The position numbers were made by a program, and so were the translations under genes. Below are positions 4,302 to 30,643 of a stretch of DNA of 64,000 nucleotides, one piece after another (position 1 is the stretch's first letter; each line of letters opens with the position of its first letter). Source of the stretch: a virus; the IMG/VR virus record IMGVR_UViG_3300022843_000013, positions 13,761 through 77,760 of that record, one strand, 5' to 3'. The notes under the pieces were generated by a model. It saw only the letters and a program-made list of their open reading frames with translations, searched no databases and had not been told where the DNA came from.

Positions 4302-4320
4302 ATTTTTTCGTCGAAATAGA

Positions 4321-4353: not shown

Positions 4354-4376
4354 GGTGTTTGTGTGGCCTGCGCCGT

Positions 4377-4718
4377 TTACCAGTCAGCCTGATACAAGGC
4401 AGACAGGTGCTCATTGATGGCCGTGACGTGCTCCGAAGCCGTTCGTCGTTCCTGCGTTTCGCGCATATCTTGAATATGCGAGGCGGCGGCGACGCCGGCC
4501 GCTAGGTGCGCGTCGTCGTCCAGATCTAGCTGGGCGATGAACGGTATCGTGAATCTGGACAAGACCTCTTCCTGATAATGAACGCTGCCCTGAAGAAGGT
4601 CGGCGAGAAACTCGTGCGCGTTCATAGCTGCCGCGCGAATACGGGAAGGTCCAACAATAGCCTCCAGCTGCGCTATGATGTCTGCTGCGTTGGGGTTGAT
4701 CGATGTGGGAGTTTTCAT
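4377..4718 (-). CDS. hypothetical protein
   Basis: 113-aa ORF in the gene run. Confidence 0.65.
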   Translation of the reverse strand: MKTPTSINPNAADIIAQLEAIVGPSRIRAAAMNAHEFLADLLQGSVHYQEEVLSRFTIPFIAQLDLDDDAHLAAGVAAASHIQDMRETQERRTASEHVTAINEHLSALYQADW

Positions 4719-4727
4719 GGTTGGTAA

Positions 4728-9529: not shown

Positions 9530-9606
9530 TTTACTTGCGCTAGGTAAAGAGGAACACCAGCCGCCGTCAGGTATTCTGACGGCGGCGGTGAAAACTCCTG
9601 CTTTGA

Positions 9607-10791: not shown

Positions 10792-10810
10792 AGCAAATTA
10801 TTATGACGCA
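10786..10810 (-). promoter_or_regulatory. repeated upstream motif TGCGTCATAATAATTTG(C/A)TATGGAC, copy 1
   Basis: 24/25 identical to 33807..33831; both copies include the start codon of a minus-strand gene. Confidence 0.6.
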
Positions 10811-11196
10811 GAAGAGAGCCTACTTGCATAGATTTCTGTCGGTAATTCTAGGGTTAGCGGCCTGCTTCCCGCGTCGGTCAGGTGGTGCAGAAGGGCCTTG
10901 TCCGCCCGACTTCTAAGCTTGCGGTGCATGACCTCAGGCTCCGTCGTCCATTCCGCTCCTAACGGGTCCGACTTCCAGTTGAGTATGCGAACGTAGAACG
11001 TGACCTTAGTCAATATGTCCACGGCCGCGAATACGCGATCGATCTTGTAGTCGACGGAGAAAACAACGCTCGGCAGGCAGCCGGCCCCAATTAAGAGTGC
11101 GGCGATCTGTCGAGCGCGTAGTTTTCTACCTACTCCGTAGAATGGTATCTTTACGACCTCTGGCGGTCCGCTAGGATCCTGAGTAGACTTTAGCAT
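10801..11196 (-). CDS. hypothetical protein
   Basis: 131-aa ORF in the gene run. Confidence 0.6.
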   Translation of the reverse strand: MLKSTQDPSGPPEVVKIPFYGVGRKLRARQIAALLIGAGCLPSVVFSVDYKIDRVFAAVDILTKVTFYVRILNWKSDPLGAEWTTEPEVMHRKLRSRADKALLHHLTDAGSRPLTLELPTEIYASRLSSAS

Positions 11197-11572
11197 CTAC
11201 CAGAAGTCTCGATAGGTTGATGATAACGTCTCTCCCGGCGAGGTCGGCGGACGCGTCAGTGGGTAGGAATTCGGTGTCGGTAAACCCTAGGGCGAATCTC
11301 TCGTTACCTGTGCCTCTGTTCAGGAGGAGCTGGTTGCCGCTTGTCAGGGTCTCCTCGGATTTTTCCATGACTCGCTTCTTGACGCCTCCGATTCCGAAGT
11401 AGGACTCGAGTGTCCTCTTGAGGTGGTTCTGAGCTGCGTCACTCAAAGATGTCTTCTCGGACTCAGCGACCTTAGCGACCTTAGCCGGAGCGGCCTCAGC
11501 GGGAGCCGGAGCGGCCTCAGCGGTTTTAGGTCTTGCGGACTTTTTGGATCGGCTATTCTTATTACTGGACAT
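11171..11572 (-). CDS. hypothetical protein with basic, Ala-rich N-terminus
   Basis: 133-aa ORF with AEAAPAPAEAAPA repeat. Confidence 0.65.
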   Translation of the reverse strand: MSSNKNSRSKKSARPKTAEAAPAPAEAAPAKVAKVAESEKTSLSDAAQNHLKRTLESYFGIGGVKKRVMEKSEETLTSGNQLLLNRGTGNERFALGFTDTEFLPTDASADLAGRDVIINLSRLLVDAKVYSGS

Positions 11573-11582
11573 GTCGGTTGTT

Positions 11583-12140
11583 TTAAATGGTTATATGCAG
11601 ACCCTCTTGAAAGTCTGACGTCTTAAATAGCATGATATCTTGATTGAAGCATGTAAAGGCGAAAGGATCGTCGGGATCTCCGAGTATCGAGGTTTTGCTG
11701 GATCGTTTCGCGTCCCGCCAGTGCGCGTCGTAGTCTTCGTCCGCCATGGGAATCGCGACCGCTCCGTCGTCCAGCTTAGGGTAGGCATCACGTAAGTCGA
11801 TCGGCTCCTCCCCTTTCATGACGTCCGGCATTGGCCCCTGCTCCCATCGACGCCACATCTTCATAGCTCGGTGGGCAGCTTTACCCGGGTCCATAGGCGC
11901 GTGGACAAAATACTCACGCTGAACAGGCACGATATCAAACTTACTACCATACTTCAGAAGTATAACGCACCAACATGTGTGGGCCCTCACTAGGCGATCC
12001 CCTTCGTCTGTCTTGCCCAAGTGGTGCAGTCTTCGCAAATAGGATGCGCTCAGGATCGCCGGATGCTTGCCGGAGATCGGCACCCCCTTGTCGCTATACA
12101 TCTGAACCCTCTTTTTACCTCGCGCTTCATTGTTTACCAT
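11583..12140 (-). CDS. hypothetical protein
   Basis: 185-aa ORF. Confidence 0.65.
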   Translation of the reverse strand: MVNNEARGKKRVQMYSDKGVPISGKHPAILSASYLRRLHHLGKTDEGDRLVRAHTCWCVILLKYGSKFDIVPVQREYFVHAPMDPGKAAHRAMKMWRRWEQGPMPDVMKGEEPIDLRDAYPKLDDGAVAIPMADEDYDAHWRDAKRSSKTSILGDPDDPFAFTCFNQDIMLFKTSDFQEGLHITI

Positions 12141-15269: not shown

Positions 15270-16079
15270 TTAACGGTAGAGTTGCCCCATACGATTATAA
15301 GATGGGCGGGGCCCTGAGGATCCTCCTCCCATCAAGAATCCTACGATACCACCGGCGATTGCTGGCAGCAAGCCTTTGGACTTAAGGACGCGCCCTATGA
15401 TCGCGCCAGCCCCAGCTCCGATCGACGTCCGTATCATGCGATACAGGGCGTCTCGGTCCTGGGACTGCATCGCCGCCATACCCCGCAACATGGCGGTGCG
15501 CTCTTGCTGCGAGAGCATGAAGTCGTTCTGCACCGCCCGAATTAGAGCCTCAGTGACCTCAGCCGATGCCTTCTTGTTCATCGTCCTCTGGTTGAACTTG
15601 TGCTGACCATAGAGCGTCGCCGCAGCTCCGAGTCCGCCTCCGAGGAGCGCGAACAGCAGACCCCTACCAGTCCCGCTCCCCCCGGCGCGGCGGCCAGACC
15701 ACGCACCCAGACCCCCAGCAGCGAGGGCGGACAGTAGAGCAACCGTACCTGTAGCTTTACCTTGAGACGAAGTCCCCCAGTCGTAGGCGTCGTTCAGACT
15801 TCCCACGACCGAGTCCTGAATCTGCCGGAGACCGGAGACCGGACGCTTGCGCCGATACTGCCCCGCCATAGCTTCAGCCATGTTATTGATGCGGTAGTCT
15901 TTGTCGAAAGTCTGCTTGTATTGTTTAGCCCCCAGCGTGACTCGGGAGCGGTCTGGTGCTAGTCCGAGGTAGCCATCTGGGTGGTCGAAAGACACAGAAC
16001 CGCCCGGTTCGGATCTGAAGTCCGAGACGTCCCCCTCTAGGTGGCGGGGGATGTAAGGGTCAAGCTGCCCCGGGATCAC
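15270..16079 (-). CDS. hypothetical protein with glycine-zipper-like hydrophobic helices
   Basis: 269-aa ORF with GxxxG segments and KKASA. Confidence 0.65.
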   Translation of the reverse strand: MIPGQLDPYIPRHLEGDVSDFRSEPGGSVSFDHPDGYLGLAPDRSRVTLGAKQYKQTFDKDYRINNMAEAMAGQYRRKRPVSGLRQIQDSVVGSLNDAYDWGTSSQGKATGTVALLSALAAGGLGAWSGRRAGGSGTGRGLLFALLGGGLGAAATLYGQHKFNQRTMNKKASAEVTEALIRAVQNDFMLSQQERTAMLRGMAAMQSQDRDALYRMIRTSIGAGAGAIIGRVLKSKGLLPAIAGGIVGFLMGGGSSGPRPSYNRMGQLYR

Positions 16080-16315
16080 TGGGGACCTCCTGACCCGTTA
16101 CCGACGTGCTCGCTGTTCATTCCCGGGTATCTTGCCACCCAATTATCCGACTCACTACCCCCGTCGTCAGGGGCTGGAGTCGAGCCGTGGTGGGCGTCAA
16201 ATTTTAACTCCGGAGCCTTGGACTCGCCAGAAGGTTTGGCGTCCATCTCAGCGATCGCGGACTCCCTAAGTTTTTTAATTTCCGGACTAACTACGCCTGG
16301 TCGAAGAGTGCTCAC
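16076..16315 (-). CDS. small hypothetical protein
   Basis: 79-aa ORF with ATGA coupling. Confidence 0.55.
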   Translation of the reverse strand: MSTLRPGVVSPEIKKLRESAIAEMDAKPSGESKAPELKFDAHHGSTPAPDDGGSESDNWVARYPGMNSEHVGNGSGGPQ

Positions 16316-16339
16316 GCGCGAATGCTACCTTTTTTAAGC

Positions 16340-18190
16340 TTAACCCGCAAGCACTTGCGTGGCTTGGTTGCGACCTGCCGCGCCGCCAGCTGATCGCAAC
16401 TTCTCCAGTTCCTGCTTCGCCGCAGCATACAACGTGGAATTCGTAGCCTCAGCCATCCTCATCTCTTCGCGATGCGAATTCGGCTGCTGCTCGTGCATGG
16501 TCTGCCACTCTACGGCTATTTCCTGCGCACGTTGCTGGATCATTGTAGGATCTGCCTGAGAATCGACAGAGTAGTCTAGACCACCACCACCGCCACCGCC
16601 GCCGCCCTCTGGCGCTCCAGCGATGCTCTGCTCGGCGGACATCATAGCCACGTCGGCCATGGACCCTTGCGCCTTCTCTTTCTCGAAGGCTGCCGATATC
16701 TCGCCGATGTCTCGGGCGATGTTTTGCTGCTCCTCGGCGGCCCTAACGGCGGCGCTAGTGGGATCATTTATTCCGACGTCAGGATAGACGTCACCGCGAG
16801 GAATTTCACCGTTGGCGGCAAGCTGCATACGCAGCTGCATCCACTCGGCGTTATGCGCCATGGCAGGTCTTTTTAGCCTTACGCTGATCGTGTCTGCGTT
16901 AAAAGAGCGTTGAAAAGTATTGGATACAAACTGGAGAAGGCCGTTCAACTGCTGATACATCCAATCGTAGTGACGCTCGAACATTCGGATAGCGTTCGGG
17001 ATAGCTTCCACCGTGAGAGCCCCGCGGTATAACTCTCTCGGAAACCCAAGGCCGTCAAAGAGCGTGTCCAGGTAGACCTCGACGACGTCGTGCATCACCA
17101 TCGTCTTACCATTCCCCCCACTCTCTTGATACTTAGCCTCAAATGGTAGCGCTTGGATAGACGTGGGATCTTTACGGTGCGCGGCGATGGCGCTCTTCAT
17201 CGTGCCGTGCCACTTAGACATGACCGTGGTCATCACCGAGTCTCCCATCTTGTCCCCGAAGCTGGGCGTGAAAAACCGCATGGGGTGTAGAAACTCCTGG
17301 GCGACAGCGAAGTCTGCCTTCCGATATACCTGTAACTGGTAGAGAGAGTCGTAATTCCACAGTATCTCGGGGACGGCCCAGCCACTATCGGAAACACCGG
17401 TAGGGGACGGGGCCCTGAAGTGAAATATCTCACCGCCGTGGAACCTAAAGTCTTTCGACTGGGAGACAGCAGCCAAGAGACCTCGAGGAGTATTGTTCAC
17501 CTCGTGCAGATGACCTCGCTTAATGCGAGACTCCATGTCCGGCGGTATGCGGTAAATGTATTGCACGGACTCTGAGTGGTGCGCCTTATCAAGCTCGCAA
17601 TACCGAGGATCCAAAAATATAACGGAGAATCTATCCGGGGAGGCTGAAGGCTTGTCGCGAAAACCAAGATCCACTGTGGGGGCGCCTCGGAGTGCATCAG
17701 GGGTTCGTGCGCCCTTTTCGAGCTTCGAGATGGCACGCATGTCGGGGACATTATAAGTCATTGCTTTCCAGTCATATTTGACTAGATGCTCCGGAAACAT
17801 GCTGAGGTTGTAGACTTTGAGTTGCCCGTCCCGAGTGTCCCACAACCAGCGGTCGAAGGGCTCTACGCATCTGACGAATCCGTTACCGTAGATGGCCCAC
17901 TCCATCCCTGCCTGCTGCATCTTAGAGAAGATTCCTATCGTCTCGGTTAGGCACTTCTTAAGTTTATCTTGCTCGTCCTTATCCCCGGCTTCCTCAAACT
18001 CAATGTCCGTAACAAAGTAAGAAACCACACGACTACAAATAGCTCCGTAAAGGCGATTTACGCGATACAGGTATAGGCACAGATCCAACGTAGACTTTAT
18101 GTCCGAAGGGAAAGTGGCCGTGGACGGTAACATGAAAGGGTCCCCGTATTTATCGGGCCCCTTCATGAATGCGGAACTTACAATAGACAT
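16340..18190 (-). CDS. probable portal protein
   Basis: 616 aa; EWAIYGNGF, EIFHFR..P.G...GW.VP and LGFPRELY resemble phage portal signatures; lies among structural-type genes. Confidence 0.6.
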   Translation of the reverse strand: MSIVSSAFMKGPDKYGDPFMLPSTATFPSDIKSTLDLCLYLYRVNRLYGAICSRVVSYFVTDIEFEEAGDKDEQDKLKKCLTETIGIFSKMQQAGMEWAIYGNGFVRCVEPFDRWLWDTRDGQLKVYNLSMFPEHLVKYDWKAMTYNVPDMRAISKLEKGARTPDALRGAPTVDLGFRDKPSASPDRFSVIFLDPRYCELDKAHHSESVQYIYRIPPDMESRIKRGHLHEVNNTPRGLLAAVSQSKDFRFHGGEIFHFRAPSPTGVSDSGWAVPEILWNYDSLYQLQVYRKADFAVAQEFLHPMRFFTPSFGDKMGDSVMTTVMSKWHGTMKSAIAAHRKDPTSIQALPFEAKYQESGGNGKTMVMHDVVEVYLDTLFDGLGFPRELYRGALTVEAIPNAIRMFERHYDWMYQQLNGLLQFVSNTFQRSFNADTISVRLKRPAMAHNAEWMQLRMQLAANGEIPRGDVYPDVGINDPTSAAVRAAEEQQNIARDIGEISAAFEKEKAQGSMADVAMMSAEQSIAGAPEGGGGGGGGGLDYSVDSQADPTMIQQRAQEIAVEWQTMHEQQPNSHREEMRMAEATNSTLYAAAKQELEKLRSAGGAAGRNQATQVLAG

Positions 18191-19739: not shown

Positions 19740-20825
19740 CTAATCTGGTAATTTTAGTGTTTTGCCCTGTAGGTCGGTAGGGCTTACCCAAGATTTCTTA
19801 CCCGTGCGACGGTCGAGAAGCAACTGATAAATTTTACCATCGGACCCGATACGAGTCCCGTAAGCCAGTCGAACATCGATACCGGCCTTCTCAGAGTTGC
19901 CAGTCCAGTAGCATGCCGACTCGCAGCTGTCCCTGACAACCAAACGACCCCCCGGGACTGAAGCGCAGTAAACTAGACCGTCGTGATGCTCAGTGTGCCA
20001 GTCGTCGCCCGACACTCCGACGTGCGACACGCCCGATAGGCGAGGCAGCCACACGGGCAGTCCGTATAGTTTGCTTGCCGCTAGGACCAGCTCCTCTCCG
20101 TCGTTTCGATATAAATTTCCTATGACCCTGTGATTAGGCGTCACGGCCATGCGGACCTCGCTGTTCTCGACCACCAGAAGCTCTCCGGTGTAGTGCTCTC
20201 GCACGACACGCTCCGCGCGGTGCCACTCGATCTTATCGCTGCTCCCGCACGCGAATACTTCCGAGTCCTCAACGTCGCACCAGGGAACCCACCCACGCTC
20301 AGTGAATACCTCACTCTCCCCTGTCAGACACTCCGGTCCGGCAATGGTATCGATGAACCCAAACTGCGAAGCGCTAACAGCCTGCATGTCACCCGTAATA
20401 GCGTTGGGATCCCCGATGCCTCCGGGGCCCATTTTAGTAATTCGACGTTGCTGCTCCAAGATGTGCATCGGGTTAATCTCCTCCAGCGCTGGGACCAGGG
20501 GGTTACTTGTGATGTAGCCGGTCGTGTATTCTCCGAAGGTGTCCGGACCCATCGGATTCAGGTTCTTCGCGCGAGCCACGCGCCCCATCATCTTTCGTAG
20601 GACCTTTCCGTGATCCAACTTAACCCTCTCGGACATCAGTTGATCCACCATGTAGATGCGATCGTTGGGTAGCGAGTCTCGGTCATCAGTCTCCGCCAGT
20701 CCCCGGTTGACCGCTAGTAGCTTCTCCGACGCGGCAAGTAGACCGTCCACGCCGATAGACGAGTATGTTTCAAACTCGTCGTCGTCGGCGATATACTGAT
20801 GTCTCTGTTTTGATTTGGTGGTCAT
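19740..20825 (-). CDS. phage RNA polymerase beta subunit middle part, intein-containing
   Basis: EINPMHILEQQRRITKMGPGGI...QFGFIDTIAGPE (cf. RpoB [21 protein letters not shown]...YGRVCPIETPE); start MTTK at 20825 coupled to the upstream stop. Confidence 0.88.
   Translation of the reverse strand: MTTKSKQRHQYIADDDEFETYSSIGVDGLLAASEKLLAVNRGLAETDDRDSLPNDRIYMVDQLMSERVKLDHGKVLRKMMGRVARAKNLNPMGPDTFGEYTTGYITSNPLVPALEEINPMHILEQQRRITKMGPGGIGDPNAITGDMQAVSASQFGFIDTIAGPECLTGESEVFTERGWVPWCDVEDSEVFACGSSDKIEWHRAERVVREHYTGELLVVENSEVRMAVTPNHRVIGNLYRNDGEELVLAASKLYGLPVWLPRLSGVSHVGVSGDDWHTEHHDGLVYCASVPGGRLVVRDSCESACYWTGNSEKAGIDVRLAYGTRIGSDGKIYQLLLDRRTGKKSWVSPTDLQGKTLKLPD
19896..20330 (-). mobile_element. mini-intein (145 aa) in the RNAP beta middle fragment
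   Basis: PE|CLTGESEV..., block B VTPNH, VYCASVP, WTGN|S; no endonuclease domain. Confidence 0.88.
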
Positions 20826-22312
20826 TTTAAATCTTCGGGCTGTATGTATCCGTCTAGCGCCATCGCCATGAGTGCCCGGGGTGTAGGGACGCCCTCCTGC
20901 ATCTCGGCGCCTCTCTTGCCCGCTTTTAGGGATAGATTGATGGCGGCGTCGTCGTCGAAGTCGTGACGGTTCATGAACCACTTCACGAACTCCCCTCGGC
21001 GATACTTCTCCATCTCTTCTTCCACCTGCAGGGCTTTGTCTCCCGGTAGCATCTTCAGAGGGTCAATGCCCCAATTACGTAGCGCGAAAGCCCGTCGGGG
21101 CGTTGGCTTCGCTACGAATTGGGCACCATGCCGCGCCTTAAAGGACTTCCACCTCTTCTTCTGATGTTCGTCCGTCTCCCCGCGCTGCCCGTCGTGGTAT
21201 TTCTCATACCATTGCAGCCAACCCTTCTGGTTTTCGTCGTCTAGCCAGTGCTTGGGCCACTCGCGCATCGAGGCGAGCTGAGGTCCGTGGTTGCCGTAGA
21301 TTGAGTTGTACACCTCGCGCATCCCGTTCGGCTCAATATCGGGCTCGAATCCCGCAGCTTTTTCGACACCATCAAAAAACCCCACCCAGTCGTCGGATAC
21401 CTCGTCGGGAGACATGTCCGGGGCGAATGTCGCGGACGATCTCTTAATCATGTCCTGCGCTATTTGTATGACGGCTCCGGCCCTCCGCCAACTGGCGGCC
21501 TTCTCCTGGCTATACAGGTTGGGTAGGTTCCTTCGCATGATCGCGTCGGACACCTGCGCCCTGTCCATAGCCGCTCGAATGGCTGCTACCTTTTCGTCAA
21601 AAGGAAGTCCTTCGTCACGCTCCCACTTGGGAACAGACTTGCGGTAGGCCCGCGCGAGTGCGTGCTTTGAATATTTCGACTTGTTGGACGCAAGTATCTC
21701 CGGTCCCCACCTTCGAGAGAGCTCCTCGTCGGTCACTCCCAAGTCTCGAAAGATGGAGTAGGCGTGCAGGTCTGAGGATCCTATCTTTAATCTGTATTGC
21801 GCGGTGGTGGGTTCGAAGGACACTCGCATCGCGGAGCCCGTCCCCGGTCTCGTATTGAAGTGATTCTCGAGTTCCCCGTTGGCGCGCCTCCTGGCGTAGG
21901 TCCCCGGGAGAAGTCTAGACTGCGACACCGGACTAAACTCGCTCCCGTTGTTGATGAAGGTGTTACGCTCCGTTAAGTAGGGCACGCGGGCCAAGGTCAT
22001 GTTCTTCTTCGTGTCGAGGACCTTGTTGGTCTCCTCGTCCACCAACCTGACGGTCCCGCGGAGTCGGCGATGCAACAGGCTGTCAGACGCCTTGGCCTCT
22101 GCCTGATCTTTCAGGGAATACTCCTCCTTGTCGGTATACTTGAGGTCGACCAATTCTAGACGCACTCCGCCGTAGGAAAACCCGTTTGCGTAACGGTCCA
22201 TGGATTTCATTATGCCAGACTCTAAGGCCCTCCGCGTGGCGGTCGAGTCCTCTGGGTCACGTAGAGTCACCCCCGGGGGCGCTGATGGTTCGTCTTCCGG
22301 TATCACACCCAA
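20822..22312 (-). CDS. phage RNA polymerase beta subunit N-terminal part fused to an unrelated C-terminal domain
   Basis: LARVPYLTERNTFINNGSEFSPVSQSRLLPG (cf. RpoB [31 protein letters not shown]); C-terminal Trp-rich GWLQWY..Y..G.R...D..Q..RW..F domain. Confidence 0.85.
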   Translation of the reverse strand: MGVIPEDEPSAPPGVTLRDPEDSTATRRALESGIMKSMDRYANGFSYGGVRLELVDLKYTDKEEYSLKDQAEAKASDSLLHRRLRGTVRLVDEETNKVLDTKKNMTLARVPYLTERNTFINNGSEFSPVSQSRLLPGTYARRRANGELENHFNTRPGTGSAMRVSFEPTTAQYRLKIGSSDLHAYSIFRDLGVTDEELSRRWGPEILASNKSKYSKHALARAYRKSVPKWERDEGLPFDEKVAAIRAAMDRAQVSDAIMRRNLPNLYSQEKAASWRRAGAVIQIAQDMIKRSSATFAPDMSPDEVSDDWVGFFDGVEKAAGFEPDIEPNGMREVYNSIYGNHGPQLASMREWPKHWLDDENQKGWLQWYEKYHDGQRGETDEHQKKRWKSFKARHGAQFVAKPTPRRAFALRNWGIDPLKMLPGDKALQVEEEMEKYRRGEFVKWFMNRHDFDDDAAINLSLKAGKRGAEMQEGVPTPRALMAMALDGYIQPEDLK

Positions 22313-22560
22313 TGTATACCGCGACCCCGAGGGGTTGGCAACACCGATGCGTCATGCGAGCATTTTCTTAAAAAGGTCACCGGCGCCGCCCCCTGAGAGA
22401 ATCCAAGAGACCAAGCCAACACCACCCCCGCCACATATTCCCCCACCGGCGACGACAGTAGGCACAGAGCCAACAGAACCAACACCGCCCAAGAAATGAA
22501 GAAAGAGAGCAAGATTTGGGCGATACGGAATGCTTTTTTAGGTCGTTTTTCTCCGGTCAC
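22303..22560 (-). CDS. small membrane protein
   Basis: 85-aa ORF with two hydrophobic stretches. Confidence 0.55.
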   Translation of the reverse strand: MTGEKRPKKAFRIAQILLSFFISWAVLVLLALCLLSSPVGEYVAGVVLAWSLGFSQGAAPVTFLRKCSHDASVLPTPRGRGIHWV

Positions 22561-22562
22561 TT

Positions 22563-22610
22563 AACCCAGAAAGCCCGGCCAATTCAATGGTCCGAGCGGG
22601 CTTGGGTTGG
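22563..22610 (-). repeat. conserved intergenic hairpin CCGC(C/T)CGGACCATTGA(A/C)TTGG(C/A)CGGGC, copy 1
   Basis: Also at about 24150..24195 and 24420..24458; each copy lies just before a minus-strand start codon. Confidence 0.75.
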
Positions 22611-22616
22611 TATTGG

Positions 22617-22964
22617 CTACAGTCCCCCGTCAGAGTCGGGGACAATCTGCTCCATAATTGAGAGCAATAGATTCTCGGAAATCACTCCGTCTCGATACGC
22701 CTCGGAAATCTTAGCGTCCCCGACGATTATGCAATCTGACTTCTGATCTGGCATCACCATTAATGGGAGCCCGAGCAGAGTTGAAATAACTGGTGATGTT
22801 TCGGTTGTTGTTATTGATTCATATCTCACGACATTCATCGCTGAAGAACTTAAGAAGTAAATTCCTTTACGTTGGGGGATGTCGGCGATTTTTTGAATCA
22901 TGTCCGAAATGATATTCGGAGTAAGTGCGTCACAAGGAGATGAATCCAATTTTGTTTTACTCAT
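22617..22964 (-). CDS. hypothetical cassette-region protein
   Basis: 115-aa ORF starting inside a degenerate attC. Confidence 0.55.
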   Translation of the reverse strand: MSKTKLDSSPCDALTPNIISDMIQKIADIPQRKGIYFLSSSAMNVVRYESITTTETSPVISTLLGLPLMVMPDQKSDCIIVGDAKISEAYRDGVISENLLLSIMEQIVPDSDGGL

Positions 22965-23006
22965 GGTTTATTTTTATCTTTCGGTGGCAGGATGGAGGAG
23001 TTCTCT
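22928..23006 (+). repeat. degenerate attC-like site
   Basis: Left arm tCACaaggagatgaatccaa (AAC mutated); right arm ggcaggatggagga-GTTCTCT with crossover G at 23000. Confidence 0.5.
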
Positions 23007-23245
23007 CTAAGATTCCAGAAGTGCCCCGCTCCTTGTTCATTGGTTTCTAAGGTGCAGTGGCATTTCGTGCATCCAACGATGCAACTGGTGCGACGGTTTC
23101 CCAAGCGTTCAATTTTTGCCTCCCCACCGCAAAACGGACACGGCAGGAGAGAACAAGACGATGCAAAACAATCGCCAAGGCAAACGCTATGTGATCCACA
23201 CGCGGAGGGTGTGGGGCAGTCTTTATGTGGATCGAAGTCACTCAT
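22961..23245 (-). CDS. Lar-like (restriction alleviation) zinc-ribbon protein
   Basis: LLPCPFCGGEA...CTKCHC...WN pattern; ATG at 23245 overlaps the upstream TGA inside an attC. Confidence 0.7.
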   Translation of the reverse strand: MSDFDPHKDCPTPSACGSHSVCLGDCFASSCSLLPCPFCGGEAKIERLGNRRTSCIVGCTKCHCTLETNEQGAGHFWNLRENSSILPPKDKNKP

Positions 23246-23272
23246 GGCGATGTTTGATCTTGGTTGTTCATC
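23148..23272 (+). repeat. attC recombination site
   Basis: AGAGAAC-aagac-GATGCAAAACAATCGCCA ... TGGCGATGTTTGATC-ttggtt-GTTCATC; imperfect palindrome with extra bases in the left arm. Confidence 0.85.
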
Positions 23273-23775
23273 AAAGATGGCCAGTTGTCGGGATTCACAG
23301 CAGCCCACCAGATTACTTCTTCGGGGCACACGCCGGAATCGTCAAACGTGCCATCAAGTAGATTCAGGACCGAGTAGTGTTCATCGCATGACGTATCGAC
23401 GAGGATTGTTTTCTCTCCGTCGCTGTATTTTACGATTACTAAGATCCTTTCGCCGTCGCCCCAGAAGTAGCTTTCAGAATCGAAGTCTTCGTGCGCTGGT
23501 CCTTTACGCCATTCAAGCGGCTTCCTATCTGCTTCGATTGCAACGCTTTTCTCTTCATTCCTAGAATTGAGGAGCGCGGCTACCATAGTCGAGAAATGTG
23601 ACCCTAAAAAGTCAGCTTGAATCTCTTCTCCATTCTCTCCCATGGTAAACGAGAGAAAGCCGGGAATGTGCCCCGTGTCTGTGCAGTGGTCAGTCCAAGC
23701 GTCTTGGAGTGCCTCAGATAAGTCATCCTCGTCAATGAAGAGATCGCTTGATGTAGTCGTGGTTTTCATGTTCAT
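23242..23775 (-). CDS. hypothetical acidic protein
   Basis: 177-aa ORF ending NNQDQTSP* inside the attC right arm. Confidence 0.65.
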   Translation of the reverse strand: MNMKTTTTSSDLFIDEDDLSEALQDAWTDHCTDTGHIPGFLSFTMGENGEEIQADFLGSHFSTMVAALLNSRNEEKSVAIEADRKPLEWRKGPAHEDFDSESYFWGDGERILVIVKYSDGEKTILVDTSCDEHYSVLNLLDGTFDDSGVCPEEVIWWAAVNPDNWPSLMNNQDQTSP

Positions 23776-23829
23776 GATTTGTTAATTTTTTCGATAAAGT
23801 CAATTTGTAATTCTTCAGGCTCGCGCTTA

Positions 23830-24147
23830 TTAATCAGCGTGGAATATAGCAGATGCCAAGCATTGATTGGGGTGAATTCTTCCCTCATGGTCCAGCTCCC
23901 GCATCGGTGGGGTTGGGCTGACTTTGAGCGTCTCTACGGCGTAATGGATCTGGCACCCCGCTATGAACATGGATCCGATTTGAACATACCAATTTGTTGA
24001 CCCGCGGTTAGTTTTTATTCCGAGGGTTTGCTCATCAGACATGACCGCTTTTATGGTTCCAAATACGGCTCGGTAGCTTTCCCCGTCGGGGGCGATAAAC
24101 CATTCGTCTGTGGTTATTAGATATTTTTTTCCTATAGTCGGTTTCAT
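23830..24147 (-). CDS. hypothetical protein (start MKPTIGK)
   Basis: ORF directly downstream of hairpin repeat copy 2. Confidence 0.7.
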   Translation of the reverse strand: MKPTIGKKYLITTDEWFIAPDGESYRAVFGTIKAVMSDEQTLGIKTNRGSTNWYVQIGSMFIAGCQIHYAVETLKVSPTPPMRELDHEGRIHPNQCLASAIFHAD

Positions 24148-24149
24148 TT

Positions 24150-24195
24150 CACCAGCAATGCCCGGCCAAGTCAATGGTCCGGGCGGGTTGGTGGT
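24150..24195 (-). repeat. conserved intergenic hairpin, copy 2
   Basis: caccaccaacccgcccggaccattgacttggccgggcattgctggtg-aaATG. Confidence 0.75.
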
Positions 24196-24206
24196 GTTTC
24201 CTTAAA

Positions 24207-24416
24207 TTAAGTCATGACGTTAGGGTCAATTCCATCTACCCAAAAGGTTCTCGCTTTAGATACCTGGGAAAACCCGACACACATCAGGATTGAAAAAACC
24301 TCTCCTTCATGAGCTGAAGCTAATCGTTCAGCCTCGATCCGAGCACTAATAATCGTTTGGTGGCGGACTTGTGGCGATGTCCCCCCTTCGCGCAAGACGT
24401 AGTAATATGTTGTCAT
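24207..24416 (-). CDS. small hypothetical protein (start MTTYYY)
   Basis: P.VRH.T..SA..EAERLA..H.G..F pattern seen in small phage proteins; follows hairpin copy 3. Confidence 0.65.
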   Translation of the reverse strand: MTTYYYVLREGGTSPQVRHQTIISARIEAERLASAHEGEVFSILMCVGFSQVSKARTFWVDGIDPNVMT

Positions 24417-24419
24417 TTC

Positions 24420-24458
24420 GCCAGCAATGCCCGTCCAATTCAATGGTCCGGGCGGTTG
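24420..24458 (-). repeat. conserved intergenic hairpin, copy 3
   Basis: caaccgcccggaccattgaattggacgggcattgctggcg-aaATG. Confidence 0.75.
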
Positions 24459-24511
24459 TAACTGTCCGACGCTACGGACCCTCTTAGGGCCGAAGGTCAG
24501 GGGAGTTCGCA
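24456..24511 (+). repeat. short attC recombination site
   Basis: TTGTAAC-tgtcc-GACGCTACGGACCCT-ctt-AGGGCCGAAGGTC-agggga-GTTCGCA; two extra left-arm bases as in attC. Confidence 0.75.
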
Positions 24512-24966
24512 TCAGAAACAACGACCTCCGCCTTGAGTAGCTCGACCGTGTTCCTGAATGCGCGCTCCAACATCTCTGGCGTCATCTCCAAATCATAGAC
24601 GCTACCGCTCCGCGCCATCCCTGCCATCACGCAGTCCGATATGTATTCGATCACGTCGAGAAGATTCACATCCTCTGGCACTCCGTCCTCTTGTCCGAGA
24701 TGGTGTCGGTGAATCTTTCTATGATTGTCCCACCATCCAGTTTTCTCGAATCCTGTGATGAAGTCATCATGGAACCAGTCGATTGCCGTTAGCTTGTCGT
24801 AGTCGTGCTCCCCAGCGGCCTCGGTGAGTTTGCCGATGAAGAACGCCATGGCTTTTACTACGTCGCCGATATGGGTGCGACTGGAAGCTAAAAGCGTTTC
24901 CTTGGTGGTGTTGGCGTAGTCGCAGGTCCGTGTGTCTGCGGTGGCGGATTTGGTTATTGGTATCAT
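24484..24966 (-). CDS. HD-like His-rich protein (DUF5662-like)
   Basis: HIGDV, HDYDK, HRKIHRHH, LLDVIEYISDCVMAG; ends NSPDLRP* inside an attC. Confidence 0.65.
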   Translation of the reverse strand: MIPITKSATADTRTCDYANTTKETLLASSRTHIGDVVKAMAFFIGKLTEAAGEHDYDKLTAIDWFHDDFITGFEKTGWWDNHRKIHRHHLGQEDGVPEDVNLLDVIEYISDCVMAGMARSGSVYDLEMTPEMLERAFRNTVELLKAEVVVSDANSPDLRP

Positions 24967-24991
24967 AAAGGGTTTAGGTAATTCGGAAGAA

Positions 24992-25092
24992 TGCGAACAA
25001 GTCGGCGCTGGCAACAGATGCCAGCGGTGAAGTTTGGTTAGGAATCGGAGTCGGCTCCCGCTGGTAGCGGTGCCACACCTTGGACGTTCTCC
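24992..25092 (+). repeat. attC recombination site, apparently chimeric
   Basis: TGCGAAC-aagtc-GGCGCTGGCAACAGATGCCAGCGG ... CCGCTGGTAGCGGTGCCACACC-ttggac-GTTCTCC. Confidence 0.8.
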
Positions 25093-25106
25093 ATAGAAAT
25101 AACACA

Positions 25107-25403
25107 ATGAAAACCACCCAAGAAGTCTACGACGCCCTCGTGGCATACATGAACAAGTTCACCGAACCAGCGAGTTCCTGGTATGCAGGAATTGCAGCCG
25201 ATCCACGGGACAGATTGTTCAGCGATCATAATGTTAATGAAACGAATGGTCAGTGGGCGTTCGATACATGCTCAACAGACACTGACGCCAGAGCTGTCGA
25301 GGCCGCCATGTTGAAGCTCGGCTGCAAGGGCGGCGGCGGTGGCGGCGACCACACGACCAAGAGTTGTTATGTCTATTTTATCACCAACTCGACCGTCGAG
25401 TGA
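25107..25403 (+). CDS. cassette gene, small protein with a remote GIY-YIG-like pattern, copy 1
   Basis: ATG about 20 nt after the attC GTT; WYAGIAADPRDRLFSDH...ARAVE. Confidence 0.7.
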   Translation: MKTTQEVYDALVAYMNKFTEPASSWYAGIAADPRDRLFSDHNVNETNGQWAFDTCSTDTDARAVEAAMLKLGCKGGGGGGDHTTKSCYVYFITNSTVE

Positions 25404-25574
25404 TGGGCACGGAAACTCATGCGGGTGATTTTCGGCTGACATGACCTCGCCTGTCTCGACATCCACTGTCTCGATCCGAACAGATATTCTAGTTTTAATA
25501 TTCATTTTGTTTTTAGCGGTCTTGCATTCCGAACTCACCACTCAAAGGCAGGTGACGCCTAAGAAAATTAAGAA

Positions 25575-25703
25575 GGAGAACAAGACGGTGGTGGACAACC
25601 GCCACCAGCCCCACTGTTTACATGATCCTGCGTAGCCACAACCTCAACCCTGTTTTCGGAGTCGGCTCCCGCTGGTAGCGGTGCCACACCTTGGACGTTC
25701 TCC
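25575..25703 (+). repeat. attC recombination site
   Basis: GGAGAAC-aagac-GGTGGTGGACAACCGCCACCAGC ... GCTGGTAGCGGTGCCACACC-ttggac-GTTCTCC. Confidence 0.85.
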
Positions 25704-25717
25704 ATAGAAATAACACA

Positions 25718-26014
25718 ATGAAAACCACCCAAGAAGTCTACGACGCCCTCGTGGCATACATGAACAAGTTCACCGAACCAGCGAGTTCCTGGTATGCAGG
25801 AATTGCAGCCGATCCACGGGACAGATTGTTCAGCGATCATAATGTTAATGAAACGAATGGTCAGTGGGCGTTCGATACATGCTCAACAGACACTGACGCC
25901 AGAGCTGTCGAGGCCGCCATGTTGAAGCTCGGCTGCAAGGGCGGCGGCGGTGGCGGCGACCACACGACCAAGAGTTGTTATGTCTATTTTATCACCAACT
26001 CGACCGTCGAGTGA
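25718..26014 (+). CDS. cassette gene, identical copy 2
   Basis: Identical to 25107..25403. Confidence 0.7.
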   Translation: MKTTQEVYDALVAYMNKFTEPASSWYAGIAADPRDRLFSDHNVNETNGQWAFDTCSTDTDARAVEAAMLKLGCKGGGGGGDHTTKSCYVYFITNSTVE

Positions 26015-26178
26015 TGGGCACGGAAACTCATGCGGGTGATTTTCGGCTGACATGACCTCGCCTGTCTCGACATCCACTGTCTCGATCCGAACAGATATTC
26101 TAGTTTTAATATTCATTTTGTTTTTAGCGGTCTTGCATTCCGAACTCACCACTCAAAGGCAGGTGACGCCTAAGAAAA

Positions 26179-26574
26179 TTAAGAAGGAGAACAAGACGGT
26201 GGTGGACAACCGCCACCAGCCCCACTGTTTACATGATCCTGCGTAGCCACAACCTCAACCCTGTTTTCGGAGTCGGCTCCCGCTGGTAGCGGTGCCACAC
26301 CTTGGACGTTCTCTGGGGAAAATAAAAGACCTGACATCAAGACCGGAACGTGACCGTTGCCCGAAAATAGCGTCGAGTCCCCGGGTGCGTAATCATCAAA
26401 CCAAACGCACAGACCGCGCTCGGGGTGATCATATATCTCTATTGGTTGCTCGCCGTCGTAATCCCTGCCGTCAGCGTTCGAAACTGTCCAGAAACCAGAG
26501 AACAAGGCATCGCTGCCAATGACTACCGCGTCGGAGTTATTGGCGATTTCGGAGTTATTTTGCGCGGTATTCAT
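26179..26574 (-). CDS. hypothetical protein that starts in one attC and reads through the next
   Basis: MNTAQNNSE...GSDALFS is attC-encoded; C-terminus ENVQGVAP...SCSPS comes from the next attC. Confidence 0.55.
   Translation of the reverse strand: MNTAQNNSEIANNSDAVVIGSDALFSGFWTVSNADGRDYDGEQPIEIYDHPERGLCVWFDDYAPGDSTLFSGNGHVPVLMSGLLFSPENVQGVAPLPAGADSENRVEVVATQDHVNSGAGGGCPPPSCSPS
26186..26314 (+). repeat. attC recombination site
   Basis: Identical to 25575..25703 except that it continues GTTCTCTGG. Confidence 0.85.
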
Positions 26575-26595
26575 GGTAGGATTTAAGCGTTCGCG
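26497..26595 (+). repeat. attC recombination site
   Basis: AGAGAAC-aaggc-ATCGCTGCCAATGACTACCGCG ... CGCGGTATTCATGGTAGGAT-ttaagc-GTTCGCG. Confidence 0.85.
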
Positions 26596-26596
26596 C

Positions 26597-26827
26597 TTAG
26601 AACCAGCGCCAGTTTTGAGGCATCGTTTGCCATTCAAATCTCATTTGCTTTGCCGCACAACCGCTTGGCCGGTATGCTGGGTCTTTTGCGTAAACTGGGT
26701 GGGGTTTAATCGCCAGCCTCCTCACTAAAAGCCAACGGACGGAGCGAACAAGGCGATGATGATACGCCCTTAATCGTTGGAACTTTTGGGGCGTGGCGGT
26801 AGTTGGTGGTGATTCTTGCGTGTTCAT
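26597..26827 (-). CDS. small hypothetical protein
   Basis: 76-aa ORF coupled to the recQ stop; HHRLVR is encoded by an attC left arm. Confidence 0.45.
   Translation of the reverse strand: MNTQESPPTTATPQKFQRLRAYHHRLVRSVRWLLVRRLAIKPHPVYAKDPAYRPSGCAAKQMRFEWQTMPQNWRWF
26743..26770 (+). repeat. truncated attC (left arm only)
   Basis: AGCGAAC-aaggc-GATGATGATACGCCC; no matching right arm before recQ. Confidence 0.55.
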
Positions 26828-28542
26828 CGATTCAAGTGTTGTTCCAGAAACGTGTGCTTCATGTCGTCTGACTGGTTCGCGTAAGTCAAAACCAGCTGCA
26901 GATCGGCCTCGGCGGACCTAGCCTTGTCGTCGAGCCGTCGGAATGCCTCCGCCGGGATGTCATCGGGTGACAGGCCCAGCCTGAGGGGCTTTGAAGTCGA
27001 CGGCCTAACCCACTCGATCTTACCGTCGCTGCTCATCTTACGCAGATGGCCGGCTACCGTCTGGGGCGCCCGACTGAGTTGCTCGGCCAGCTCGTCCAAG
27101 TTTATCTGAACCCACCCGTCATCCCCTTCCAATCCGATATCATAAATGGCGTCTCGCGCTTTCTTGTCCGTAGGAGTGAGGGACGGAATGTTCTCAGCGA
27201 AACGGACGCGTGACTTGCGTGCGGCACTCTCGTCATTAATGAACATGCGTTCGCCGTGGCAGAAAGCCATTATCGACTGCACCGCGAATGTATCGACGCC
27301 AGCTTGTCGGGCTATGTCGTCACGCTTCGCCGTAATAATACCGCTGGATCCCTCGCGCATACTCTTGGCTGCGGCCCAGAATTTCCGTATGTCTTCCTGG
27401 GACGGACTACCGCATCGGATGAAGTGTCGCTGCGTGCGAACGCCCTCCTTGGTCGGAATAATCGTGCAGAAAGAATCCGCACCGTCCCGACCTGCGCGCC
27501 CGAACTCTTGCGTGTAAGCCACTAGCGTCCCTGGTATGTCGAAGTGGACTACGGACCTAATGTCGCCCTTGTCTACGCCCATACCGAAGGCGCACGTGGC
27601 TACGATGATAGCGTCCGGAGACGCCATGAACTTGTCCTGCTGGTAAGTTCGATCTTTCGTGGACATCTTTCCGTGGTAGAACAGGATGTCCCGATCTGTG
27701 TAAGACTGCAGGGTGGACGCGTAGAGCTCCACGCGCTTTGTAGTGGACGCGTAAACAATCGTCGCCCCCGGGCAGTTCTCAAGCAACCATTGATACTGGT
27801 CGGATTGATTTTCGGTGAATAGGGACGACAGGTGCAGGTTAGTCCGTCTCGGGTAGTGGTAGATTAACTCCGCCCCCTCGATACCAAGACCGGCTCGGCA
27901 TTCAGCCTCAGCGTCGGACGAGAGCGTAGCTGAGAAAGCTGCGACAACTTTGGGAGCGACGTCCTGAATCATGAGGCCCGCGGACTTATAGCCGGGACGG
28001 AAGGTGTCGGCCCAGTCCGCGAATGTGTGGCACTCGTCGAGGGCTACGAAATCAGGAGGATACTGTCGCACCACGTTAGCCCACTCCGGGTTGGCGAATC
28101 GCTCCGGGGAGACGAGCATAAACTGCAGGTCGCCCGCCGCCCAATCCCGGAGGACCGAAGCGTTGTGCCCGTCAGTCTCGGCGCTGGATATCGTCGCAGC
28201 GGCCAGTCCTTTGCGCTGCATCGAGGTTGACTGATCCCTCATCAGGGCGATAAGCGGGTATATGATGATAGTCTTCCACCCCATGCACAACGTGGGGACC
28301 ACGAAGCATGCGGACTTACCTAAGGAAGTCGGCAGTATCACCACGGAATCTCGGCCCGTCATGATGGATTTGACCGCGCGGTCCTGACCTGGTCGGAGGC
28401 TTTCGAACCCGAGTTGATTCAGGACGTAGGGCATCTTCTTCATACCCTCTGCATATGCTTTCACTTGACCCATGGTAGCGACTTCTTTTCTAGATTCGAT
28501 CTTGATGTCTTTCGACGATGTTTTTTTTACAGCTGGTGGCAT
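26824..28542 (-). CDS. recQ: RecQ-family DNA helicase
   Basis: LRPGQ, LPTSLGKS, PLIALMRDQ, SPER, DECH..W...FRP.Y, SAT, AFGMGVDK, QEFGRAGRDG. Confidence 0.93.
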   Translation of the reverse strand: MPPAVKKTSSKDIKIESRKEVATMGQVKAYAEGMKKMPYVLNQLGFESLRPGQDRAVKSIMTGRDSVVILPTSLGKSACFVVPTLCMGWKTIIIYPLIALMRDQSTSMQRKGLAAATISSAETDGHNASVLRDWAAGDLQFMLVSPERFANPEWANVVRQYPPDFVALDECHTFADWADTFRPGYKSAGLMIQDVAPKVVAAFSATLSSDAEAECRAGLGIEGAELIYHYPRRTNLHLSSLFTENQSDQYQWLLENCPGATIVYASTTKRVELYASTLQSYTDRDILFYHGKMSTKDRTYQQDKFMASPDAIIVATCAFGMGVDKGDIRSVVHFDIPGTLVAYTQEFGRAGRDGADSFCTIIPTKEGVRTQRHFIRCGSPSQEDIRKFWAAAKSMREGSSGIITAKRDDIARQAGVDTFAVQSIMAFCHGERMFINDESAARKSRVRFAENIPSLTPTDKKARDAIYDIGLEGDDGWVQINLDELAEQLSRAPQTVAGHLRKMSSDGKIEWVRPSTSKPLRLGLSPDDIPAEAFRRLDDKARSAEADLQLVLTYANQSDDMKHTFLEQHLNR

Positions 28543-29006
28543 GATGATAATTGGACTGCGGTTACGACGCTAGTTCTTCCGTCTTCGGTGACTACGGTGT
28601 GGAATATCCCGCGTATGGGGAGATTCCACACCGACCTGATGAACGGTGTGTCTCGTTGGCTCGAAGCGGCAACGAGCCATATGGCGTCTTTGCCGCTTCG
28701 CTGCGTGTCTTTTACGACCCACACTTCCCCGGACGAGCACAGCATCTCGTCAACGAACTCGGAAACCATTCCCGGCTTAGAGTTCATGATGCTGTTGGCG
28801 ACATCCACTTCCCAGGCATACAGGCCGACAACTTCGGACACGAGCATACTTTGATACGGGGGAATTCCGTCCATTTCTGAGTAGCGCTCGCATACTTCTT
28901 CAACGGTCTCTAGAGGGGACACGCCGAGTATGGAGGCTAGAGTGCGGGCTACTCCGGTTCCGGAGGCCTTCACTACCTTGGGTGTTATTTTCTTACGTGG
29001 TGGCAT
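28527..29006 (-). CDS. hypothetical protein
   Basis: 159-aa ORF between recA and recQ. Confidence 0.65.
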   Translation of the reverse strand: MPPRKKITPKVVKASGTGVARTLASILGVSPLETVEEVCERYSEMDGIPPYQSMLVSEVVGLYAWEVDVANSIMNSKPGMVSEFVDEMLCSSGEVWVVKDTQRSGKDAIWLVAASSQRDTPFIRSVWNLPIRGIFHTVVTEDGRTSVVTAVQLSSCHQL

Positions 29007-30643
29007 TACTGTATTGTTGGTGGCTTCTCCTCTGCCTCTCCCTGCTCGTCTGCGGTCGCCTCAACTAGCCCCTCGACCATACCGGCAATCTCGTCGAGAT
29101 CGTCGTCATCTTCATCCGGTGGCTTTTCCTCGTCTACCGGCTCCTCGTAGCCTTCAATGCCGAGCGCTGCACCGACGAATTCCAACTCGTTCGGGTTTGC
29201 GTATAGAGCGGCGTACAACGCCTCGTCGGTGACGGCTACGCATCCAAGCACGTCGCACGTGTAGCGGGGACCTGCGGACATGTTGGCGGTGTTGACGGTC
29301 GTCCCGAGAAGTCCGCGCTTGACCATAAACGAGGCAAACCCGGGGGCGTAGGACAACGGGCGCCCGTAGGTTTCCTTGGTGTCTTCGTATTTGTCATAGT
29401 AAAGCGCGAAGTCGCACTGTCGGAGCTTTGCCCCGTAGCTATTCTTGATCATCGTCAGGCGGACGTTCTGCCCGTATGTGAGTTTATCTCCTGACTTTTC
29501 CTTAATGTCCCCGACGCCCATCAGCGTGAACCTGTAGGCGCAGAACTGACGGAACGCCCGCCCGCCGATGCGCGTGTCGTTTTTAGTCTCGGAAGGTGTC
29601 ATGAATGAAGGTAGGGATTTCTTCATATCGACGCGCTCGTTCTGGTGGTTTACGTAGATCATGACGCAGTTATACTCATCCATGAACTCTCCCATCTCTC
29701 GCTTAGTGACCTGAGCGTGTTTTGAGTGCCCCATATTGGACCCAGAGAGGGCGTCTTTCGGCGCCTCTTTCTTAGCGTTCGCCGGTAAGCCCCAGCTTGA
29801 TCGACCCACGGCCTCCGCGGAAGACTTAAGGCTGGACCAAGGGTCGACCACCACGAATATGGGGTTGCCCTTCGTCTCCGGGTTCTCGTCGCATCTCTTG
29901 CGAAGCTCGGGAACGGTTTGCTTGATCGTGTTGTCACACTCGACAAGCTGTCGGGCGCTGGAGAACTCGATAGTATTCAGGAGAAGCGCGGCCGTCTTCT
30001 TGTTTTTGTGCAGGATCCTGGAGATGTGCTCCGGCTTCATCTGTTTGTTCTCGCACTCGATATAGAGGGAGTAGCAGCCCATCATGGACGCCCTCCCCAA
30101 GAAGTCGAATATCCATGTGGTCTTCCCTACGGAGTCTGGGGCTACCATCTCGATGGCGGTAGGCGTGCGCAGACCGATGCATCCGATGACGTTCTGCATG
30201 CCGATCTCCTCGAACGGAAAAAGTGTCTTACGTAGCATTGAGGGCGTGTATAAGCGGACGGGCCGCTTGGCGGACCTCTCGTTCAAGATGTCCATCGTTT
30301 TGTTCACGTTCTCCGCCATGCTGTGCAGAACTTTTCCTTGGTTATCGGACGTTATGCGACGCTTGATGGTTTGATTCTTGGAACTCAAAAGGTCGGGTTT
30401 GTAGGACGGTCTTTTCTTGGCTGCCTTTTTGGCTGCCTTTTTAGCGACCTTCTTGGCTGCGACCTTTTTAGCGGCTTTCTTAGCGGCTTTCTTGGCGGGC
30501 ACCCTCTTGGCTACCTTATCGTTGGCTGTCTTATCGTTGGCTGCCTTAATGGTTTCGTATATCTTCAATGAGATTTCCGCTGATGTGGCGGTGGTTTTAT
30601 TTTCCTCCGGCTCCTTTTCTGAAGTCTTTTCGTTTTCGTTCAT
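29006..30643 (-). CDS. RecA/UvsX-like recombinase with a histone H1-like N-terminal extension
   Basis: Walker A APDSVGKTT, YIECE, VVVDPWS, YVNHQ, IGGRAF, IKNSYG; KKAAKK repeats at the N-terminus. Confidence 0.8.
   Translation of the reverse strand: MNENEKTSEKEPEENKTTATSAEISLKIYETIKAANDKTANDKVAKRVPAKKAAKKAAKKVAAKKVAKKAAKKAAKKRPSYKPDLLSSKNQTIKRRITSDNQGKVLHSMAENVNKTMDILNERSAKRPVRLYTPSMLRKTLFPFEEIGMQNVIGCIGLRTPTAIEMVAPDSVGKTTWIFDFLGRASMMGCYSLYIECENKQMKPEHISRILHKNKKTAALLLNTIEFSSARQLVECDNTIKQTVPELRKRCDENPETKGNPIFVVVDPWSSLKSSAEAVGRSSWGLPANAKKEAPKDALSGSNMGHSKHAQVTKREMGEFMDEYNCVMIYVNHQNERVDMKKSLPSFMTPSETKNDTRIGGRAFRQFCAYRFTLMGVGDIKEKSGDKLTYGQNVRLTMIKNSYGAKLRQCDFALYYDKYEDTKETYGRPLSYAPGFASFMVKRGLLGTTVNTANMSAGPRYTCDVLGCVAVTDEALYAALYANPNELEFVGAALGIEGYEEPVDEEKPPDEDDDDLDEIAGMVEGLVEATADEQGEAEEKPPTIQ

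Follow-up and report, generated by a model that had tools for sequence, protein, structure and literature searches.

A 64,000-nucleotide stretch of an uncultivated phage genome (the window; bases 13761-77760 of the linear, 77,760-base IMG/VR record IMGVR_UViG_3300022843_000013) contains, at 22931-26790, an array of hairpin sites, all on the + strand, which are integron-type attC sites and members of a bacterial attC family. Integrons are regarded as bacterial gene-capture devices. With a probability of about 0.8, we read the stretch as an integrase-less integron cassette array, i.e. a cluster of attC sites lacking an integron integrase (CALIN), within a variable accessory region of a large salt-lake phage. 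In this arrangement each unit would comprise a gene segment followed by a + strand attC hairpin, units would join at G|TT, and an integron integrase would carry out the exchange on the folded single strand. The infected host would provide this enzyme in trans; that host is probably a member of the Verrucomicrobiota with an integron of its own.

The phage sites belong to a bacterial attC family

Six of the sites are imperfect palindromes in which paired L boxes lie between an inner box that ends in AAC and an outer box that begins with GTT; two degenerate sites (s0 and s7) flank them. From the left the layout is AAC, five unpaired bases, three paired bases, an extra G and more stem with one or two extra A, followed by a variable loop, the complementary arm, six unpaired bases and GTT. 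The 5- and 6-nt unpaired spacers, together with the three extra bases of the left arm, set the polarity on the + strand. The six are s1 (23152-23268, AAC to GTT), s2 (24460-24507), s3 (24996-25088), s4 (25579-25699), s5 (26190-26310) and s6 (26501-26591). Of these s2 is a short hairpin with three extra left-arm bases and outer box GTTCGCAT; it folds, and fits by shape and boundary only. In the terminal site s0 (22931-23002) the AAC is replaced by CAC; the outer box of s0, GTTCTCTC at 23000, forms the left boundary of the first cassette. At the other end, s7 (26747-26782) is a half site. A preliminary description of the window, made from the letters alone, had counted six complete, one degenerate and one half site on the + strand, and this count is upheld by reading of the sequence and, for four sites, by a geometric scan and, for five, by a covariance model.

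The first such model, R1, was built from six attC sites of an array in one Verrucomicrobiota genome (G059). It finds the site family in 11 of 151 Verrucomicrobiota genomes, in up to 33 copies each, clustered in arrays; on the window sites R1 alone gave E-values of 0.2-0.9, and it was replaced by R2, built from 95 attC sites of Verrucomicrobiota arrays, all bacterial. Run unfiltered on the window, R2 recovers five sites with the predicted ends, all on the + strand, at E 1e-11 to 5e-6: s1 (29.5 bits, E 1.2e-6), s3 (27.6 bits, E 4.7e-6), s4 (45.6 bits, E 1.3e-11), s5 (45.3 bits) and s6 (30.0 bits, E 8.4e-7). The half site s7 scores 12.2 bits (E 0.27), and the best R2 score elsewhere in the window is only E 0.52. 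The covariance-model check proposed in the preliminary description thus came out in its favour. A strict geometric pattern (AAC, 5 nt, 3 bp, one extra left-arm base, at least 4 bp, 6 nt, GTT) recovered s1, s4, s5 and s6, on one strand and within 3.5 kb, where shuffling of the whole 77.7-kb record gave 3.65 +/- 2.1 matches, both strands combined.

The family that R2 describes sits beside integrases wherever positions were compared. All ten Verrucomicrobiota genomes tested had a match to the integron-integrase model TIGR02249 above its curated cut-off, against none of 14 controls; six of the ten had supplied sites to R2, and all six were positive. In the four genomes whose positions were compared (G059, G062, G143 and G146) the integrase gene adjoins the array, and repeat searches around the integrase genes of two others (G065 and G144) gave no usable attC set. 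Bacterial and phage sites are alike in the sequence and 5-nt length of the spacer and in the three base pairs followed by an extra top-strand G, and the outer boxes of the bacterial sites are often GTTC, as in the phage. In some Verrucomicrobiota, arrays next to an integrase gene are made up of the site family seen in the phage.

Several properties of the sites weigh against this assignment. The hairpins fold with their extra bases as the preliminary description had expected, but their DNA folding energies only modestly beat those of shuffled sequences (z -0.5 to -3.3) and s0 shows no stable fold. Neither s2 nor s0 is detected by R2, and an Rfam scan of 20000-30000 gave no matches, Rfam containing no attC family. 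The AAC-5nt to 6nt-GTT anatomy stands, but all seven outer boxes are GTTC and depart from the textbook GTTRRRY consensus, and on the bottom strand C takes the place of the usual G as first extrahelical base. These last two departures are lineage traits, because the consensus of the bacterial family shows them too.

Cassette boundaries and turnover

Because units would join at G|TT, a cassette should begin with bases that pair with the inner box of the attC it carries. For each site, the 12 bases that follow were set against all the inner boxes, read as reverse complements. Between the box that follows one site and the inner box of the next, the complementarity runs, from left to right, over 8, 3, 8, 7, 7, 9 and 6 bases, and the cognate pair is best or joint best in every row except that of the long interval 23267-24505 (3 bases), the sole exception that the preliminary description had named. 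The cassettes so delimited, all on the + strand, are C1 (23001-23266, including the R2-matched s1, with 8 bases between the s0 outer box and the s1 inner box), C3 (24506-25086, including s3, with 8 bases between the s2 outer box and the s3 inner box), X (25087-25697, including the R2-matched s4), a second, exact copy of X (25698-26308, including s5), C6 (26309-26589, including s6, 9 bases) and a last unit with the half site s7 (26590-26790, 6 bases).

As judged from contig comparisons, whole cassettes differ between copies of the phage, and one cassette is common to an unrelated phage. An independent contig from JGI (L052) matches the window at 100% identity between 29411 and 26306 and diverges at the s5 outer box (26306-26308), where sequence from run X22 also departs from the window. 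In place of cassette X, L052 has two tandem units that obey the boundary rule (start GTTGGAC, inner box GTCCAAC) and whose attC sites score 38-39 bits with R2; one carries an IS91-family Y2 transposase gene (3109-5046 of that contig) and the other an internally deleted copy. Further variants break at 24505-24509, at s2. At both of its edges the array is joined to phage genes in Logan contigs from four other samples, and these contain additional alternative junctions. The alternative junction sequences are absent from the window, and no exact match to the s4 right arm, the attC of the IS91 cassette or the alternative junction sequence turned up in pattern scans of IMG/VR.

The shared cassette is C3. 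The whole of it (window 24504-25090, 587 bp) is 85% identical to positions 16825-17411 of G410, a complete phage genome of 43.6 kb that is otherwise unrelated, blastn and tblastx finding no other G410 similarity in the 77.7-kb record. The similarity is bounded by AGTTCGCAT on one side and GTTCT on the other, the two points of recombination. Together with L052 and the other variants, this supports the suggestion in the preliminary description that the phage gains and shuffles genes cassette by cassette.

The breakpoints are not all of one kind. Those of L052 and the ends of the G410 similarity lie at G|TT, as had been predicted, but variants also diverge right after the inner AAC of s3 (24998), s5 (26192) and s6 (26503), and a protein encoded on another metagenome contig (P0166) implies such a break at s1 too. 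Two of the variants have identical foreign DNA after the inner box. Breaks of this kind count against the integron interpretation, because bottom-strand recombination by IntI alone does not predict them. Recombination on the top strand, or insertion in inverted orientation, may account for them; the rival reading is homologous exchange at the boxes, which are short and conserved. The array also contains a genuine 611-bp tandem duplication (25045-25655 and 25656-26266, plus 47 nt). A second difficulty is that s3 agrees with s4 and s5 in every one of its last 47 nt on the right. Its right arm has become one of the s4 type, and homologous exchange therefore occurs as well.

These observations support the least unlikely of the alternatives, namely that the phage acquired the array from a host integron on one occasion and has carried it since as a fossil, varied by homologous or microhomology recombination of the phage at boxes and repeats. 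On that explanation the breaks at both conserved boxes, the conversion of s3 and the duplication flanked by 47-nt repeats would need no integrase; one variant has also lost DNA between two stem-loop repeats unrelated to attC (see below), and the phage encodes RecA-like, SbcC-like and helicase genes. The cassette common with G410, however, has zero flanking homology on either side of its extent from AGTTCGCAT to GTTCT, the conserved boxes are just ~4-10 bases long, and ten-cassette arrays that obey the boundary rule recur in other phages (in G408, described below, with matches of 7-10 bases). We consider a fossil array unlikely.

The long interval that breaks the boundary rule (23267-24505, - strand) contains three - strand genes (23242-23775; 23830-24147, a member of phrog_22562; and 24207-24416). 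It also holds two copies (24144-24196 and 24413-24465) of a second repeat family, a GC-rich stem-loop (GCCCGGCC..GGTCCGGGCGG) whose third copy lies at 22557-22609; all three stand directly upstream of - strand start codons, and one overlaps the inner box of s2. A population variant in run X24 joins 24185 to 24454, so that 24186-24453, with a gene for 69 amino acids, is lost between two of the repeats. This looks like homologous loss of a module at regulatory hairpins, and homologous exchange at the same repeats has probably erased the boundary signature of the interval. In T4-type phages, promoter-stem-loops (PeSL) mediate the shuffling of modules: repeated intergenic hairpins of a hyperplastic region accompany the gain and loss of genes. 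The three stem-loop copies at 22557, 24144 and 24413 behave in this way, whereas the attC sites give site-specific boundaries without flanking homology.

Source of the integrase and the IS91 alternative

No match to the tyrosine recombinase family PF00589 was found in the 77.7-kb record, which agrees with the earlier statement that the window encodes no integrase, and neither an intI gene nor an attI site or Pc promoter was found in the record. Within the record the locus thus has several close attC sites (a CALIN being defined by at least two) and no integron integrase nearby, and "CALIN-like" is the right label because there is no tyrosine recombinase in the record. The completeness of the record, 42% by CheckV, tells against a firm claim of host supply, because the rest of the phage genome may encode an integrase.

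Other phages with the same sites bear on this point. A degenerate-pattern scan of IMG/VR, followed by R2, revealed same-family arrays in at least six other viral contigs (L133, L139, L144, L165, L166 and L169). Two of these are complete genomes by CheckV: G408 (L166; 41.6 kb, with terminal repeats), which has ten sites at 8494-11806 with boundary matches of 7-10 bases, and G410 (L169; 43.6 kb), whose array lies at 15569-17413. Both are bona fide phages with terminases, G410 having in addition portal, head and tail genes and G408 a DnaB-like helicase. Neither has a match at E 0.001 to the integron-integrase model, which at this level matches in all 14 control genomes and should catch ordinary tyrosine recombinases. 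Since two complete phages of the same site family gave no integrase match, supply by the host is the more likely, and provision in trans is inferred because neither our record nor these phages encode the enzyme; it is the most economical reading. The host is probably a member of the Verrucomicrobiota, to which the attC family and the best homologues of a 98-residue cassette protein point without constituting proof.

An enzyme other than an integrase has to be considered, given the transposase in L052. In this second alternative an IS91-family rolling-circle transposase (Y2 HUH) would cut single-stranded GTTC beside a hairpin on either strand. IS91-family elements target GTTC/CTTG beside a hairpin end, by oriIS, have ends with subterminal palindromes and use single-stranded circles (PMC13181058). 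All seven outer boxes of the array are GTTC and most inner boxes GAAC, so cutting of GTTC on both strands would fit the breaks at both boxes, and L052 carries an apparently intact gene with Y2_Tnp and Zn_Tnp_IS91 domains, plus the deleted copy, within cassette boundaries. No close relative of the L052 transposase was found in IMG/VR. IS91-like genes are also common inside integron arrays of Verrucomicrobiota, as cassettes or as units with a hairpin, and several copies occur per genome. A homologue is present in 24 of 401 Verrucomicrobiota genomes, and in one of them (G375; loci L061 and L097) the transposase gene is an ordinary cassette, in at least four copies following different upstream sites. 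In G059 (locus L099) an IS91-type unit, which also carries a tyrosine recombinase, has an attC-like hairpin of its own and is inverted; each of its three copies ends at the inner box (GTTCAAC) of a different resident hairpin, and our reading is that this unit inserted at the inner box by recombination on the top strand of the resident site.

The same bacterial arrays argue against the transposase as the agent. The G375 cassette lies among attC sites with outer boxes GTTAG, GTTAT or GTTGT, and its copies have ordinary G|TT boundaries after their different upstream sites. In the phage, adjacency to GTTC is present, but the hairpins vary between cassettes as attC sites do, the left ends differ likewise and share only the 6-9 bases complementary to their own inner box, and there is neither a terIS-like palindrome nor a conserved ori or ter. 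The transposase is absent from the window, occurring only in the L052 variant, and no homologue was found in the other phage loci compared. The sites match those of integrase-adjacent arrays in both shape and sequence. Variable hairpins, the lack of conserved ends and the presence of the same family beside integrases favour the integron reading, and we judge movement by an IS91-type transposase to be improbable, a little more so than a fossil array.

The remaining alternative, a bacterial integron fragment misassembled onto phage sequence, would agree with the difference in GC content (0.507 in the array against 0.558 in the flanks) but can be set aside, as the chimeric insert against which the preliminary description had cautioned is contradicted by an independent JGI contig that links the helicase gene to the array, by Logan contigs of other samples that span both array edges, by a cargo of phage gene families and by the complete phages with terminal repeats that carry same-family arrays.

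Reversed cassette genes and a possible phage use of attC hairpins

Most cassette genes lie on the strand opposite to that expected of an integron. Only the gene for the 98-residue protein and the L052 transposase gene are on the attC top strand, the canonical orientation; antisense to the sites are a Lar-like gene, a DUF5662-like gene, the phrog_22562 gene, the C6 open reading frame (ORF) and an unverified ORF in the last unit. The - strand holds nearly all genes of the record, and the - strand cassette genes are packed with the flanking phage genes and co-directional with phage transcription. By contrast, the genes of the bacterial G059 array lie on the attC top strand.

The opposite polarity, with the - strand as top strand, was considered and rejected. 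It conflicts with the left-arm position of the extra bases, with the identity of s4 and s5, with the L052 units, which have one and the same downstream site but different upstream sites, and with the extent of the cassette common with G410. The + strand is the top strand, and each attC belongs to the segment on its left.

Reading frames in the array run into and through the hairpins. The Lar-family zinc-ribbon gene of C1 (22961-23246, - strand; homologues carry PF14354) has its first 31 codons encoded antisense by s1, a canonical homologue starting just before CPFCGG. In P0166 the same 31-residue leader precedes an unrelated protein; because of this recurrence before a different protein, the attC hairpin may act as a portable translation start. 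The DUF5662-like phage gene of C3 (24484-24966, - strand) has its last six codons past the cassette boundary. Close homologues of its product share a segment ending ..VVVSDAN and continue in three different tails, the divergence falling exactly at the 24505 boundary; the family (3641 homologues) is viral, the protein was not found in five bacterial genomes with the same attC family, and the gene is antisense to its attC in G410 as well. The C6 ORF (26179-26574, - strand) starts inside s6 and continues into the neighbouring site, and its C-terminal tail differs in L052. The C3 and C6 frames thus both end within a neighbouring site and their tails change with the neighbour. From such comparisons, the hairpins appear to supply leader peptides, tails and overlapping stop and start codons to the genes read through them.

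The same polarity is seen in both complete phages, whose sites lie on the strand opposite the phage genes; in G408 this holds for all ten sites, and the bottom strand there carries ORFs chained by overlaps of 4 bases that fall within the hairpins. Reversed polarity with read-through accordingly recurs in at least one other phage, and probably in two.

The 98-residue protein of cassette X is encoded on the + strand at 25107-25403 and, in the second copy, at 25718-26014. Its family has the invariant pattern WYAGIA..RLF..H..GGG..Y.Y, occurs in metagenome-assembled genomes (MAGs) of many phyla and has no Pfam match. We had the impression of a possibly degenerate GIY-YIG-like motif. The best homologues (74% identity) are one in a MAG labelled Verrucomicrobiota and a protein labelled Kiritimatiellia, and a ~160-kb contig encodes a protein identical to that of the window. 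No attC was seen beside homologues at six loci inspected, from among 51 bacterial MAG loci.

To the right the array is anchored by a RecQ-like helicase gene with DEAD and Helicase_C domains (26824-28542, - strand), which is identical in L052; its stop is overlapped by the unverified ORF of the last unit (26597-26827, - strand). A RecA-like protein and pieces of polymerase A are also encoded beside the array, and the rest of the record contributes pieces of a phage-type RNA polymerase beta subunit, Dda-like and DnaB-like helicases, an SbcC-like protein and the large terminase. The genome size is estimated at ~185 kb, the phage encodes its own RNA polymerase, and it is present in 24 public runs, the DNA deriving from salt-lake metagenomes. 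Searches with the helicase as query found no close relative among GenBank phages (only ~30% identity) and no related phage in IMG/VR; in JGI metagenomes they yielded one 5-kb contig. Two identical, perfect palindromes of 95 nt, starting AACGTTGTAAAACCACAAAACCCGAT, lie 607 bases apart at 45706-45800 and 46313-46407 and are unrelated to the attC family.

Arrays of this kind have been seen before in phages. Qi et al. (2023) described 17 CALINs in phage genomes and showed that IntI1 recombined five of six phage attC sites with attI1 (PMC9892861). The kind is consequently already known, published phage CALINs having been assayed with IntI1, and the label given in the preliminary description stands whereas its emphasis on rarity in phages has to be tempered. 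Like those arrays (PMC9892861), the present one is a cluster of attC sites without an integrase in a phage, with accessory cargo that includes anti-restriction functions, and a host integrase has been proposed for both. It differs in having six to eight sites in a ~185-kb phage with its own RNA polymerase, in its Verrucomicrobiota-linked site family, in mostly antisense genes that are read through the sites, and in exchange seen directly in the sequences, within a population and between unrelated phages. With sedentary chromosomal integrons (the G059 and G375 arrays and the Vibrio superintegron) it shares anatomy, the boundary rule, tandem duplicate cassettes and IS91-type cassettes, but intI, attI and Pc were not found, the genes of most cassettes are reversed and the setting is a phage transcription unit. 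Similarities to IS91 and ISCR elements comprise GTTC beside a subterminal hairpin, single-stranded circular intermediates and the transposase of the array variant; the differences are those given above.

What this case adds, on good support, is a statistically solid array in a large uncultivated phage, evidence of turnover, a link to a bacterial attC family and a recurring reversed polarity. Prior evidence of cassette movement in or between phages is thin. Here two array versions occur in one population, and one cassette is common to otherwise unrelated phages, with homology that ends at the recombination points, which is evidence of turnover at the sequence level. The link to a bacterial attC family offers a route to predicting both the host and the donor of the integrase. 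With a Lar-type anti-restriction protein among its cargo, the array may serve as an exchangeable set of counter-defence genes. More tentatively, phages of Verrucomicrobiota-type hosts might share a pool of reverse-polarity cassettes of their own. The hairpins would act there as portable modules for start, leader, tail and stop, able to chain cassettes in any combination into one transcription and translation unit, and both strands of each site would recombine, giving new combinations of gene segments and hairpins at both boxes. Such an undescribed, phage-adapted form of the integron is a view that we regard as speculative and rather doubtful. Reversed polarity with read-through, if confirmed, would be a new way of using integron cassettes.

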